Origin: an uncultured Pseudomonadota bacterium
GTDB taxonomy: Bacteria > Oederibacteriota > Muellerivitia > Muellerivitales > Muellerivitaceae
Direction: 5' to 3'
Assembly (NCBI GenBank): GCA_963836235.1
Contig: CAWIIP010000002.1
Span: forward strand, 1,952,001-2,016,000
DNA length: 64,000 nucleotides
Part shown: in pieces, positions 16,177 through 63,247 of the stretch
Position numbering within the stretch: position 1 is the first letter of the stretch
Layout: every line of letters starts with the position of its first letter
Notes under the pieces: model-generated
Told to the model about the DNA's origin: nothing
Seen by the model: the letters and a program-made list of their open reading frames with translations, nothing else
Databases searched by the model: none
Program-made: the position numbers and the translations under genes

Positions 16177-16518
16177 ATGAAAAAAATTGAGGCCATTGTC
16201 CGGCCCGAGAATTTCGAGAAAATCAAAGCCGCGATGGAAAGGGTCGGCTACGACGGAGTGACCCTGACCGAGGTGGAAGGCCAGGGGCGCCAGAAGGGCC
16301 TGGCCCAGCAGTTTAAGGGCTACAAATTCAACGTGGACTTTTTGCCTAAATTAAAAATGGAAATTGTGGCCGCCGACGGCGACGTCGCGAAGATCGTCCA
16401 GGCTATCCTGGGGACGAAGACCGGCGGACAGGCGGGGGACGGCAAGATATTCGTGTATGGTATTGAGGAAGCCTATCGCATCCGTGACGGAGAAAAAGGG
16501 GAAAAGGTTGTTTCCTGA
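16177..16518 (+). CDS. PII family signal transduction protein at the end of the kdp operon
   Basis: MKKIEAIVRP, G.GRQKG, FLPK, GDGKIFV; 33 nt after kdpC. Confidence 0.95.
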   Translation: MKKIEAIVRPENFEKIKAAMERVGYDGVTLTEVEGQGRQKGLAQQFKGYKFNVDFLPKLKMEIVAADGDVAKIVQAILGTKTGGQAGDGKIFVYGIEEAYRIRDGEKGEKVVS

Positions 16519-16630
16519 GGGGAAGTTCCGAGCGGGGCTTGCTTGGAGGGTGGGGATGTCCTTGATGCAAGAGGATTAAATCGGGCTAGGTGCGGAAATA
16601 ATGTTTCCTGCTTTCCGGTGAAGGCCATTT

Positions 16631-16697
16631 TTTTATTGTTTCTTAATATCCAGGGGTTCCTTCCTAAGAGAATTTTAATCTCTCTTTGTTCTAAGCT
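16631..16697 (+). promoter_or_regulatory. Predicted KdpE-type promoter of micropeptide 1
   Basis: TTTTAT(16631), CTTAAT(16642), CCTAAG(16663), TTTAAT(16674) spaced 11/21/11; -10 TAAGCT at 16692, same offset as in the kdp promoter. Confidence 0.55.
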
Positions 16698-16735
16698 TTT
16701 CTTAGATGTTTGTAGTTTAGTTTGAGGAGGGCGAA

Positions 16736-16816
16736 ATGGATTCAGGCATTCTGTCGTTTTTGATTTTGGGCGCCATGCTTTTACTGGCGGGTTTTTATTT
16801 GAAAGAGTATAAATGA
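16736..16816 (+). CDS. Membrane micropeptide 1, 26 aa, MDSGILSFLILGAMLLLAGFYLKEYK
   Basis: GAGGAGG RBS; own terminator; paralogue of the next two ORFs. Confidence 0.8.
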   Translation: MDSGILSFLILGAMLLLAGFYLKEYK

Positions 16817-16821
16817 TTTTT

Positions 16822-16861
16822 TTAAAAAGACCCTTCGCCCATGGGCGAAGGGTCTTTTTAA
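16822..16861. terminator. 40-bp perfect palindrome, bidirectional terminator
   Basis: TTAAAAAGACCCTTCGCCCA|TGGGCGAAGGGTCTTTTTAA. Confidence 0.85.
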
Positions 16862-60257: not shown

Positions 60258-60306
60258 AGAGGATGGTCTATGAAGACGGTTCCCAATCGGGGCCGCCTTT
60301 TTTGTT

Positions 60307-61365
60307 TTACGGCCAGTTGACCGGCAGGGAATCGGGGTGAAATAAGGAACCCGCTTTTTTGTAATGAAAAGCCAAGTTAATAACTTGTCCACCTCTTAGG
60401 GCTTCTATATGGAGACGTTCCCAAGCGTAGTCACTTTTTCCCCCAATGTTTTTGGCTTGGCTCCAGAACTTAAGTCCTTTAGTTCGATGACCCCTCAAAA
60501 ATTCGACTTCCGCGAACCCCAATAAGGAATAGATGCGACCACGAGTGTCACCGGTTTTCTTGAATAGGCCATCCGCCTTTTGAAAGGCCGACCAAGCCGG
60601 AGAATAGTCACCTAACAGCTTATAAGTGGTACCAATAGACCAGAGGGTATAAGCGTAACTGACCCGGTCGCCGATCGTTCCATAGAGCTTTTCGGCTTTT
60701 TTATAGAAGGGAAGGGCCTGTTGGAAACGGCCCGCCATCCGCTCCACATTGCCCAAACCGCAGTAGGAATAAGCGATTCCGAAGGTATCCTTGCGCAGGC
60801 GCATGAGGCGGTTGGCTTCCTTATAAAATTTTCCTGAATCCTTATAGCGTCCCAACATTCGGAAAATTCCGCCCAGAGCACAACAGCTGTAAGCAACACC
60901 CTCTTTGTTTTTAAGCGACTTGAATATTCGCAGGGCGGTCTGAAGCTCCTTGAGGCCCGCGGTCATTTTGCCGGCAATCCTTAGGGTGCCGCCCAGCGCC
61001 CAATGGGTGAAAGCCTCCCCTTGATCATCTTTTTGCATTTGGTAGGCCGTAAGCGCCTTTCGCAGAATGACGAGGGCTTTCTTAGGTCTTCCGCAAGCCC
61101 GAGCCGCAAGAGCCCACCCGACTTGGGCGTCCCAATAAGTTTCATCGTGTTGCTTTTCAAAAATATTAGAGGCCTTCAGATAATTTTGGAGAGCTTTGGA
61201 GAAGTCGCCCTGGATTCTTTCAACGTCCGCTAAACCTAGGAGCGCCTCAGCTTTTTCCATAAGAGTTAGAGAAGGAATTAGAATTAATTTTTTATAAATA
61301 TTTTGAGCGGCGCGAAATTGAGAAGCTTCTCGGGCCTTTTCAGCCTTCTCAAATAAACGATCCAA
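60307..61365 (-). CDS. Tetratricopeptide repeat protein
   Basis: About seven ~40-aa TPR units (AYS...LG...R..G). Confidence 0.88.
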   Translation of the reverse strand: MDRLFEKAEKAREASQFRAAQNIYKKLILIPSLTLMEKAEALLGLADVERIQGDFSKALQNYLKASNIFEKQHDETYWDAQVGWALAARACGRPKKALVILRKALTAYQMQKDDQGEAFTHWALGGTLRIAGKMTAGLKELQTALRIFKSLKNKEGVAYSCCALGGIFRMLGRYKDSGKFYKEANRLMRLRKDTFGIAYSYCGLGNVERMAGRFQQALPFYKKAEKLYGTIGDRVSYAYTLWSIGTTYKLLGDYSPAWSAFQKADGLFKKTGDTRGRIYSLLGFAEVEFLRGHRTKGLKFWSQAKNIGGKSDYAWERLHIEALRGGQVINLAFHYKKAGSLFHPDSLPVNWP

Positions 61366-61552
61366 AAGAAATCCTTTTCTTATTAATGATGCTCATCATA
61401 AACGAATCCGATTTTAGGAAAGATAATCGGCCCGCGAATTAAAAACAAACGAAAAATAACGTATTTGTAATTTTATACAAAACAGTTGTTTTGCATGCAT
61501 AATGCTCTCCCTATTGGTTTCTTTCAAAATTTACGAATCCAAGGAGAAAAAG

Positions 61553-62875
61553 ATGAAGTTTCTTCACGGTTCTTTTGATGGATTAAGAGGAAAATCGGCT
61601 GGGTGGTTCACCGCGGGTTTTGCCTTCTTGATGGCCGGCTCCGCCATGGGCCAAGTAAATACGGTTCCGGCCATCAGCGCGGGCGATACGGCCTGGGTCT
61701 TGACGTCGGCAGCTTTGGTTTTGCTGATGACACCGGGGTTGGCGTTCTTCTACGCCGGAATGGTGCGCCGGAAAAACGTCATGGCTACGATTCTCCAGAG
61801 TTTCTTTCTGGTGGCCCTCATCAGCGTGCAATGGGTTATCTGGGGTTATTCCCTGGCTTTCGGAAACAACGGAAGCAATTTCTGGGGAGGATTGGGCTGG
61901 CTTTTCCTGGACAACATGCCGGCGGTCAGTCCCCTGGCCCCCACCATTCCCCACTACGCCTTCATGATCTTCCAAGCCATGTTCGCCATCATCACGCCAG
62001 CTCTTATTTGCGGGGCCTATGCCGAGAGGGTGAAATTTAAGGGCTTCGTGGCTTTCTCGCTTCTCTGGGCCACTTTCGTTTATGACCCCATCGCCCATTG
62101 GGTTTGGGGTGGTGGTTATTTTAAGGACGCCCTGGATTTCGCCGGAGGAACGGTGGTTCATATGTCCTCCGGTTATTCGGCATTGACCCTCGCCCTGCTT
62201 TTAGGAACCCGAAAGGGTTACGGAAGGGAATCCATGGTTCCCCATAACCTTACTATGGTCCTTTTGGGGGCCAGTTTACTTTGGTTTGGATGGTTCGGGT
62301 TCAATGCCGGATCGGCGGGCGCCGCCAATGCCTTGGCCTGCAACGCCTTTGTTACCACCAACACGGCCACGGCCATGGCGGCTATTACCTGGTGCGCCAT
62401 AGAGCTTTTCCACCATGGAAAAGCCTCTTCACTCGGTGCGGCTTCAGGGGCGGTGGCGGGACTGGTAGCGATCACCCCGGCTTGCGGCTTTGTGGATGTG
62501 AAAGCCTCGCTCATCATCGGGTTTGTGGTGAGTTTCCTTTGTTACACCGCGATTCAGATAAAAGTGAAGCTGGGTTATGACGATTCCCTGGACGCTTTCG
62601 GGGTACATGGAGTTGGTGGAACTTGGGGAGCTTTGGCCACCGGGTTGTTCGCCTTGAAGGCCATCAATGGCACGGATGGGCTTTTCGCGGGAAACCCCGC
62701 CCAGTTCTTCATCCAATTGAAAACGGTAGCCGCTACAGCTGTTTATTCGATTTTAGTCACCATCGTTATTTATTTCTTGGTCGAAAAAACGATCGGGATG
62801 AGGGTCGGTGTGAAGGACGAGGAATTGGGCTTGGACTTATCACAACATGGGGAAGAGGGTTACAACCTAAGGTAA
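61553..62875 (+). CDS. amtB: Ammonium transporter AmtB
   Basis: AAGGAG RBS; GDTAW, MTPGLAFFY.G, DFAGGTVVH, DDSLDAFGVHG. Confidence 0.97.
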   Translation: MKFLHGSFDGLRGKSAGWFTAGFAFLMAGSAMGQVNTVPAISAGDTAWVLTSAALVLLMTPGLAFFYAGMVRRKNVMATILQSFFLVALISVQWVIWGYSLAFGNNGSNFWGGLGWLFLDNMPAVSPLAPTIPHYAFMIFQAMFAIITPALICGAYAERVKFKGFVAFSLLWATFVYDPIAHWVWGGGYFKDALDFAGGTVVHMSSGYSALTLALLLGTRKGYGRESMVPHNLTMVLLGASLLWFGWFGFNAGSAGAANALACNAFVTTNTATAMAAITWCAIELFHHGKASSLGAASGAVAGLVAITPACGFVDVKASLIIGFVVSFLCYTAIQIKVKLGYDDSLDAFGVHGVGGTWGALATGLFALKAINGTDGLFAGNPAQFFIQLKTVAATAVYSILVTIVIYFLVEKTIGMRVGVKDEELGLDLSQHGEEGYNLR

Positions 62876-62911
62876 AAAAGTCTTATTTAATCTGAATAAA
62901 GGAGGATGAAA

Positions 62912-63247
62912 ATGAAAAAAATCGAAGCGGTCATTCGACCCAGCGCGCTACGGGACGTTTTGGATGGATTAAAGTCGGTTGGATATCCCGGGGTCACCGT
63001 GAATGAAGTATCAGGTCACGGTAAGCAAAAGGGAATCACGGAGTCATATCGAGGACAAAGCGTCGAGGGTTTGCTGCCAAAACTGGTAGTGACGGCCGTG
63101 GTCGGGGAAAAGCAGGTTAAAAAAGTGACCGACATCATTATCAAAGCCGCCAGGACGGGAGAAATAGGGGATGGGAAAATATTCGTTTCTCCCGTTACCA
63201 ATGTAATTCGTATCCGAACGGGTGAAAAGGGAGAAAAAGCAATTTAA
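62912..63247 (+). CDS. PII protein (GlnK-like) downstream of amtB; alternative ATG at 62906
   Basis: [33 protein letters not shown]. Confidence 0.95.

Follow-up and report, generated by a model that had tools for sequence, protein, structure and literature searches.

Context-specific T-loops in a lineage-wide radiation of PII signalling proteins beside transport genes of an uncultured bacterial lineage

PII proteins are among the most widespread signalling proteins, and their known transporter targets are few. This raises the question of why a single bacterial genome should gather PII genes beside several different transport genes, as is seen in a stretch of 64,000 nucleotides (contig CAWIIP010000002.1, positions 1,952,001 to 2,016,000 of the forward strand; hereafter the window). 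The original prediction for this locus had described six PII domains within 47 kb, each paired with a different transport protein, and had proposed an expanded PII family with transporter-specialised T-loops that jointly manages potassium and ammonium. Judging from sequence comparison with relatives, what we see is a lineage-wide radiation of canonical PII proteins comprising at least nine sub-types, most of which occur in one gene context and carry their own T-loop.

Scoring with the Pfam profile PF00543 (curated cut-off 25 bits) recovered all six domains where they had been predicted, with E-values of 1e-22 to 3e-30 and scores of 79.8-105.1 bits. The neighbouring genes were likewise borne out by Pfam as KdpC, two Amt proteins, CitMHS_2, a BBP2 porin and a fused permease. 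The six domains are the following:

16177-16518, plus strand, PII after kdpC (PF00543 E 1.2e-26)
46568-46903, plus strand, PII domain of an APC permease fusion, residues 571-675 of the 44858-46903 product (PF00543)
51070-51411, plus strand, PII after amt1 (PF00543 E 2e-29)
51524-51862, plus strand, PII before CitMHS_2 (open reading frame listed from TTG 51488; PF00543 E 2.8e-30)
55189-55560, plus strand, PII after the BBP2 porin (PF00543 E 2.6e-29)
62906-63247, plus strand, PII after amt2 (PF00543 E 1e-27)

The source genome of the window (G000; other G numbers denote related genomes and L numbers fetched loci), with a completeness of 99.4%, consists of 5 contigs that total 3.97 Mb. Seven PF00543 matches were found in it, and since six of these fall within 47 kb, their clustering goes beyond chance. 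Only two Amt genes are present genome-wide, both of them in the window, compared with seven PII genes, five of which have no adjacent Amt gene. The fusion protein is 88% identical to a homologue in a metagenome-assembled genome of candidate division FCPU426, and on this similarity the window is assigned to a relative within an uncultured soil/peat lineage, a family of candidate phylum FCPU426.

Alignment of the six domains reproduced each of the T-loops that had been quoted and agreed with the predicted conservation of the nucleotide-binding loops. Columns K58, G84, G87-D88-G89-K90-I91-F92 and R101 are invariant, in keeping with the B-loop (T-G-x-x-G-D-G-K-I-F), Lys58 and Arg101 of canonical PII. 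The numbering is canonical, residues 1-111 of the 16177 protein aligning without gaps to residues 1-111 of the solved PII 2eg1. K58, G87, K90 and R101 are also nearly universal among 104 PII sequences of the family. Position 103 is Arg in five window copies and Ser in 51070. Gln39, which lies at the T-loop base and serves binding of Mg-ATP and 2-oxoglutarate, is kept in five copies and is Thr39 in the fused domain; Thr39 was found in 8 of 10 fusions of the family, and Gln in the consensus of 27 wider homologues. The five stand-alone proteins match PF00543 only in Pfam, with no sign of PstA/DarA membership, and all six domains reach 70-120 bits against the NCBIfam equivalogs of Escherichia coli GlnB and GlnK, below the cut-offs of 181-202. 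Within the T-loop, position 51 is Tyr in 51070 only, as had been noted, and in the other copies F, a gap, I, a gap and V. At position 47, both 51070 and 62906 have Arg, and the remaining four have K, M, L and P.

We then compared the family more widely. Among 40 related genomes searched, the number of PII per genome ranged from 2 to 13 in members of the family, and a 48-kb stretch of G012 contains five of its seven. From 16 of these 40 genomes we took 60 loci around PII matches (150 of 193 matches being listed), called neighbours as greedy longest open reading frames and labelled them by phmmer against the window proteins. A tree was built from the 104 non-redundant family sequences, 68 of which could be assigned to context groups set by the neighbouring gene only. 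By number of genomes among the 16 relatives, PII occurs after Amt2 in 15, after the porin in 11, as a fusion and in a chemotaxis (che) context in 8 each, ahead of CitMHS_2 in 6 and behind Amt1 in 4. Several modules recur: a TPR gene on the opposite strand to Amt2-PII-deacetylase, often doubled; Amt1-PII-PII-CitMHS_2; porin-PII-GGACT; the APC-PII fusion; and TPR-PII-CheY. T-loops proved 78% identical within context groups versus 29% between them, and the rest of the protein 72% versus 45%.

These observations suggest that the PII paralogues are probably transporter-specific regulators. As an overall explanation, we regard it as an even call that this is a PII radiation in which the copies act on products of their own operons via their T-loops. 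Each copy would dock by its T-loop on the product of its own operon and shut or tune that product when nitrogen is sufficient. In the window, 51070 and 62906, both with Arg47, would be ordinary GlnK plugs of Amt1 and Amt2, respectively; 51524, with Gln9 and Leu47, would act on the CitMHS_2/NhaD-like carrier that follows it; and the fused domain would act on its own tethered APC permease. The 55189 protein would act on an inner-membrane or cytoplasmic target, and 16177 may couple Kdp to nitrogen status. Reuse of the GlnK plug principle across the copies appears to be the most economical reading. The sequence data themselves show the sub-types with their recurring contexts, the residue patterns and the probable operon limits; docking and its effects are inferred.

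A number of observations weigh against this reading. The seven PII before CitMHS_2 split into three clades, 3 of 11 PII after porins carry a different, Arg47-bearing T-loop, and neither context group is monophyletic; a further 36 of the 104 sequences had no assignable context and were dropped. Gene calling in the relatives is crude, with some neighbours mislabelled, and their kinship makes them non-independent samples for conservation counts. Among the best 30 kdpC loci (of 99 genomes from the phylum, 41 have KdpC), PII directly follows kdpC in three, those of the window, G075 and G011, which represent three genera, and it is missing at this position in G001, a genome of the same genus as the window. 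Similarly, in a survey of 80 metagenome loci with distant CitMHS_2 homologues (42-59% identity), PII stands directly upstream in 2 of the 65 loci with room and anywhere in 4 of the 80, and both upstream proteins are GlnB-like, not of the 51524 type. Finally, carriers of the IT superfamily and APC permeases are not, to our knowledge, known as trimers. The PII-regulated channels and carriers treated in a 2023 review (PMC10710835) work as trimers.

The expansion of the family and the way its T-loops track context thus stand, and most PII form clades that match both T-loop and context, although clade and context are not one-to-one. That the six genes adjoin transport genes is likewise correct; pairing of each with a different transporter was overstated, given that the porin lies in the outer membrane and that the porin and CitMHS_2 groups are not monophyletic.

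The pairs with the clearest precedent are those with ammonium transporters. The features concerned, together with those of the adjoining carrier, are:

49064-49078, sigma-54-like box before amt1, one mismatch
49212-50894, plus strand, amt1, a long ammonium transporter of 560 amino acids (PF00909 E 4e-103; TIGR00836)
50905-50950, near-perfect palindromic hairpin with T-runs on both sides, directly after amt1
51436-51466, terminator-like hairpin between the tandem PII genes, 12 pairs and a T-run
51868-53268, plus strand, CitMHS_2/NhaD-like carrier of the IT superfamily (PF16980 E 2.6e-151; start per homologues ~51907, giving 453 amino acids)
60307-61365, minus strand, TPR protein
61502-62875, plus strand, amt2, AmtB-type (PF00909)

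Both 51070, with the T-loop GLSQQFRGYKY, and 62906 are GlnK-type, and each forms with its amt gene the classic gene pair, with a canonical PII signature and Arg47. The 2007 structures of AmtB-GlnK reportedly identified Arg47 as the plugging residue. In the family, Arg47 is present in all 26 Amt-adjacent PII (22 of 22 after Amt2 and 4 of 4 after Amt1), in none of 7 before CitMHS_2 and none of 10 fusions, and in 3 of 11 after porins. The Amt2-linked clade comprises 29 tips, 22 of them labelled (support 0.79). In the GlnK-AmtB system as described in PMC6603209, ADP-bound GlnK plugs AmtB, and it is on this system (see also PMC10710835) that the mechanism proposed above for the other window copies is modelled. 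The palindromic hairpin and the 175-nt gap after amt1 may attenuate read-through into the 51070 gene.

Adjacency need not mean interaction, and a rival explanation is that the PII genes simply lie in a nitrogen-regulated island, possibly under sigma-54, being required whenever the transporters are, and act on shared or cytosolic targets, such as glutamine synthetase control, biosynthetic enzymes or transcription factors, which their T-loops reflect. That Arg47 tracks Amt adjacency in 26 of 26 cases speaks against such co-expression, and it indicates that at least adjacency to Amt reports a physical target.

The window differs from the GlnK-AmtB model with regard to modification. No match to TIGR01693 or PF08335 (GlnD_UR_UTase) was found in the source genome, and GlnD was above cut-off in none of 31 family genomes. 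Eight weak matches in family genomes correspond to open frames of 585-1040 amino acids, and three of these are the loci of a ~1026-amino-acid gene called GlnE (in L016 by Pfam). The combination of Tyr51 and GlnD that characterises GlnD-modified proteobacterial PII was thus not found in the window, where Tyr51 occurs in one of six copies and no uridylylation is expected. The check for glnD proposed in the original prediction was thus negative, and it is unlikely that Tyr51 of 51070 is a uridylylation site. Because the adenine pocket is kept in all six copies and Gln39 in five, and GlnD was not found, the copies most likely respond solely to the binding of ATP, ADP and 2-oxoglutarate, as PII does in organisms that leave it unmodified.

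Directly downstream of the amt1-PII pair stands the second of the tandem PII genes, 51524, with the T-loop GITQNWLGRMI. The terminator-like hairpin splits the tandem, and each PII thus appears to belong to its own transporter gene; the start of this gene is at 51524, not at TTG 51488, which directly follows the hairpin. A gap of 5-44 nt separates PII from the CitMHS_2 gene. This close spacing, and the hairpin that sets the pair apart from amt1-PII, speak against co-expression alone. The same pair was found in G004, G018 and G021, and the core CitMHS_2 clade has a support of 0.988. Arg9 is replaced by Gln9 in 23 of 28 close homologues of 51524. In Synechocystis PII, a change of Arg9, which belongs to the usual interaction face, abolishes binding of Amt1, NAGK and NRT (PMC6603209).

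Apart from PF16980, the carrier gave a weak CitMHS match and matched no other Pfam family and no NCBIfam family. It is not SbtA, so that the pair is not of the SbtB/SbtA type, and no close solved structure was found for it. Its homologues are numerous and are automatically named sodium:proton antiporter or NhaD/arsenite-permease-like. On the counts from distant loci given above, we rejected the idea of a widespread PII-CitMHS_2 pair, and the pairing seems nearly confined to this lineage. A long Amt1-type gene adjoins the distant carrier in 7 of the 80 loci (L109, L113, L130, L132, L141, L144 and L163), mostly without PII. A looser association of this carrier family with long Amt proteins thus reaches further than the PII pairing and hints at a functional tie between the carrier and ammonium transport. 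Candidate KdpD-like kinases near the distant homologues scored 42-81 bits and were set aside as probably generic histidine kinases.

One PII domain is linked to a transporter covalently. The fusion gene and its neighbours are:

44858-46903, plus strand, APC permease with C-terminal PII, 681 amino acids as listed (PF00324 AA_permease E 2.1e-22, and PF00543)
44863-44877, plus strand, sigma-54-type -24/-12 box TGGCACGACCTTTGC, a perfect pattern match ~50 nt before the probable fusion start
43287-44519, minus strand, DUF4118-HisKA-HATPase kinase (Pfam), with a KdpD-type DUF4118 but without the KdpD N-terminal domain
42586-43410, minus strand, OmpR-type response regulator (Pfam); its open reading frame overlaps the kinase gene and its start is probably later

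Homologues suggest a start of the fusion at ~44927, which gives a protein of 658 amino acids. Fewer than 10 residues link the permease to the PII domain, whose T-loop is shortened to SKTDDMPS. Both domains are present in 119 of the 120 best fusion homologues, a constancy that co-expression can hardly explain without action of PII on the permease. All 10 fusion PII domains of the family form one clade (support 0.999). Homologues with this architecture come from Smithella, Desulfomonilia, Brevinematales and further uncultured lineages. Compared with these fusions, the one in the window has the same architecture and is set apart by the adjoining DUF4118 kinase and regulator and by the perfect sigma-54-type box; the kinase/regulator pair is divergent from the fusion gene, and the same trio is found in G018 (L040, L008).

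The substrate class was assessed by similarity. A KimA-type potassium carrier was considered and found no support in the sequence, as no KimA chain was among the PDB matches and BLASTP against the KimA-like proteins of the window gave E-values of 0.034 and 0.24. The best PDB match of the permease part is a cationic amino-acid transporter (E 0.001), and automatic pipelines name the homologues amino-acid or polyamine carriers. A literature search retrieved no paper joining 'PII domain' with an amino acid permease, and no experimental study of the fusion family was found. Unfused homologues of the permease adjoin kdpAB in both archaeal loci inspected, one from a Methanoregula (L011 118-13237) and one from a Bathyarchaeia (L013 132-7596) metagenome-assembled genome. 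In the Methanoregula locus, the order continues with PP2C, two PII, a Ser/Thr kinase, a third PII, AnfO and a nitrogenase component.

In the porin-PII pair, the neighbouring transport protein lies in the outer membrane. The pair and its surroundings comprise the following elements:

53666-53680, sigma-54-like box before the porin gene, one mismatch
53781-54938, plus strand, BBP2 OmpL-like porin (PF07642)
55745-56194, plus strand, GGACT-like enzyme
56231-56259, terminator-like hairpin after the GGACT gene

The region 53666-56259 is probably an operon of box, porin, PII and GGACT gene, and the hairpins at 51436-51466 and 56231-56259 suggest amt1-PII, PII-CitMHS_2 and porin-PII-GGACT as units. 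No nitrogen-related RNA element was found in the window with Rfam. The porin-PII-GGACT order recurs in relatives. The PII of this operon has the T-loop GLHADWPQGM with Pro47. An outer-membrane porin cannot be the direct target of a cytoplasmic PII, and because of this location the 55189 protein must act elsewhere than on the porin.

Co-expression is favoured here, because the porin is beyond the reach of PII and yet porin-PII is among the best-conserved pairs. In relatives, PII sub-types also stand beside cytosolic enzymes, namely GlnE (GlnE-PII clade support 0.99) and a nitrate/nitrite reductase pair, and one sub-type can occupy different contexts. Moreover, three units of the window are preceded by sigma-54-like boxes. 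The boxes before amt1 (49064) and the porin gene (53666) are near-identical, differing by a single base, and rpoN is present in the genome. The window as a whole contains 46 matches to the sigma-54 pattern versus 57 ± 7 in shuffled sequence, that is, no excess. Only where the three best intergenic matches lie, before the fusion, amt1 and the porin gene, is suggestive. Weighing these points against the Arg47, spacing and fusion data, we consider co-expression with shared targets unlikely as the general explanation.

At the other end of the window, direct action of PII on the product of its own operon would concern Kdp. A potassium block makes up the first third of the window, with kdpDE, which encode the two-component regulator of Kdp, on the minus strand and kdpABC plus PII on the plus strand:

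7079-7777, minus strand, kdpE (Response_reg and Trans_reg_C, Pfam)
7797-10493, minus strand, kdpD (KdpD PF02702 E 8e-97, with DUF4118, GAF, HisKA and HATPase_c)
11134-12933, plus strand, kdpA (PF03814 E 8e-227)
13155-15407, plus strand, kdpB (E1-E2_ATPase and Hydrolase)
15550-16143, plus strand, kdpC (KdpC PF02669 E 4.5e-78)
after the kdp block, ahead of two APC-superfamily permeases, Crp-type regulator
18558-20537, minus strand, KimA-like potassium transporter (PDB 6s3k, KimA, E 5.8e-59)
20616-20763, minus strand, cyclic di-AMP (c-di-AMP) riboswitch, leader of the 18558-20537 gene (Rfam RF00379, 79 bits)
21872-23773, minus strand, second, distant KimA-like APC permease (PDB 6s3k E 2.2e-9)
23709-23848, minus strand, c-di-AMP riboswitch, leader of the second KimA-like gene (RF00379, 44.4 bits)

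The T-loop of 16177, GLAQQFKGYKF, carries Lys47 and Phe51. The protein is 64% identical to the Amt1-linked 51070, and in the tree it groups with its orthologue in G075 as sister to the Amt1-linked PII (support 0.976). It is thus, by its position in the tree, a young duplicate of the Amt1-linked regulator in which Arg47 was changed to Lys and Tyr51 to Phe. In a fluid island, the copy might be a by-product of rearrangement or of a duplication nearby, with no Kdp-specific role and perhaps serving as a second Amt1 regulator. Its close relation to 51070, its patchy occurrence after kdpC (3 of 30 loci, missing in G001) and the rearrangement of the island between genomes all fit this possibility. Less easily explained by it is the G075 orthologue, which shares 76% identity and the same Lys47 and Phe51 and stands after kdpC in another genus (pair support 0.995). 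In G011, the PII found between kdpC and kdpDE is of a different type and has Arg47 and Tyr51, and in the window 16177 follows kdpC after 33 nt, with no strong terminator before 17089. On balance, we find a by-product without a role at Kdp doubtful, if a real possibility. Two further loci of the 30 have a porin directly after kdpC.

A broader version of the Kdp link was part of the original prediction, namely that PII proteins jointly manage potassium and ammonium, which compete for the same carriers. Spelt out, PII would jointly gate potassium carriers (Kdp, perhaps also the fused permease and CitMHS_2) and ammonium carriers, so that ammonium neither enters nor cycles through the potassium systems. 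Buurman is said to have described in 1991 ammonium cycling through E. coli Kdp, and ammonium entry by this route would be a possible rationale for coupling the pump to PII. In line with this proposal, kdpC is directly followed by PII in G000, G075 and G011, which belong to three genera, and kdp or kimA-like genes lie a few genes from PII clusters, in varying arrangements, in 8 to 9 of the 16 relatives. The only two c-di-AMP riboswitches of the genome, which also has one diadenylate cyclase (DAC), are on KimA-like genes of the island; the one at 23709-23848 overlaps the listed TTG start at 23773, which places the true gene start further downstream. Unfused permease homologues adjoin kdpAB in the two archaeal loci, and a KimA-like gene flanks CitMHS_2 in 2 of the 80 distant loci. 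On the other hand, PII is missing after kdpC in 27 of 30 loci, that of the same-genus G001 included, the PII at Kdp arose recently by duplication of the Amt1 regulator, and the fused permease lacks significant similarity to the KimA-like proteins and is called an amino-acid or polyamine carrier by the pipelines. Our literature search found no link between PII and Kdp. Joint management of potassium and ammonium, which is only partly supported, is thus the weakest part of the original prediction: the proximity of potassium genes to PII clusters holds, the kdpC pairing is rare and the fused permease is not detectably KimA-like. We consider this gating distinctly unlikely.

The seventh PII gene of the genome lies outside the window:

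549119-549457 of G000:C1 (L184 6120-6458), minus strand, seventh PII, in a chemotaxis operon

The order of this operon is CheR, TPR, CheW, a 739-amino-acid TPR protein, PII, CheY, CheD, CheW, CheY, CheB and CheA (Pfam). Its PII has an unusual T-loop base, GYGYQK, with Arg58. The TPR-PII unit recurs in loci of 8 relatives, and the che PII form a clade with a support of 0.998.

Control of transporters other than Amt by PII-family proteins has precedents. The transporters listed as PII-regulated in the 2023 review are AmtB, Amt1, the cyanobacterial ABC importers NrtABCD and UrtABCDE, and SbtA, with the PII-like cyanobacterial protein SbtB being encoded beside the carrier SbtA (PMC10710835). CitMHS_2, APC permeases and Kdp do not appear in the transporter table of that review (PMC10710835). 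The candidate partners in the window, a CitMHS_2 (PF16980) carrier, an APC permease and the P-type ATPase encoded by a kdp operon, belong to other families, and the window proteins are canonical PF00543 members, not of the SbtB type. Our literature searches found nothing linking PII with Kdp, CitMHS_2/PF16980 or APC permeases; the one paper found to mention PF16980 does not concern PII.

Links between nitrogen-type or PII-like signalling and potassium uptake do exist. PtsN (EIIA-Ntr) controls KdpD and Trk, and c-di-AMP controls Kdp and KimA and is bound by PstA/DarA, a PII-like receptor; the KimA-like genes of the window resemble these systems in carrying c-di-AMP riboswitches. The difference is that neither the PtsN nor the PstA system has a canonical PII encoded in a kdp operon. 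Further context-specific PII types are PotN, CPII and the PII-NG group. What appears to be new here is a PII radiation that is both large and context-specific and that offers several candidates for new classes of target.

With seven to thirteen paralogues per genome, a constant nucleotide pocket and divergent, context-specific T-loops, the lineage amounts to a natural experiment in which target choice could be tested by T-loop swaps. The fusion and the kdpC-linked PII raise the possibility that carbon, nitrogen and energy status regulate a P-type ATPase as well as carriers of amino acids, polyamines or cations. A Kdp link, if true, would join nitrogen to potassium homeostasis in a new way, which would matter for life in acidic, nutrient-poor peat and soil. 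In the boldest form of the favoured explanation, T-loop change alone would have retargeted canonical PII to the CitMHS_2/NhaD-like carrier, the APC permease and Kdp, three architectures not known as PII targets, so that one ATP/ADP/2-oxoglutarate read-out would coordinate uptake of ammonium, potassium and further solutes with no covalent modification of PII, and one paralogue would feed into chemotaxis; this we consider improbable.

Some contexts were seen in relatives only. The PII-GlnE arrangement is found at L016 10224-13821. At L051 3947-8838, a molybdopterin reductase, PII, a NirA-like reductase and a second PII follow one another, with the two reductases forming a nitrate plus nitrite reductase pair. 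At L018 9384-17022, three tandem PII genes stand ahead of HTH/DUF1232, OEP, HlyD and AcrB genes for RND efflux. Between its potassium and nitrogen blocks, at 31931-36003, the window itself has an RND efflux set of the heavy-metal type that consists of an AcrB-family pump and an HMBD/HlyD-like protein and has no adjacent PII; a similar pump stands after the triple PII in relatives.

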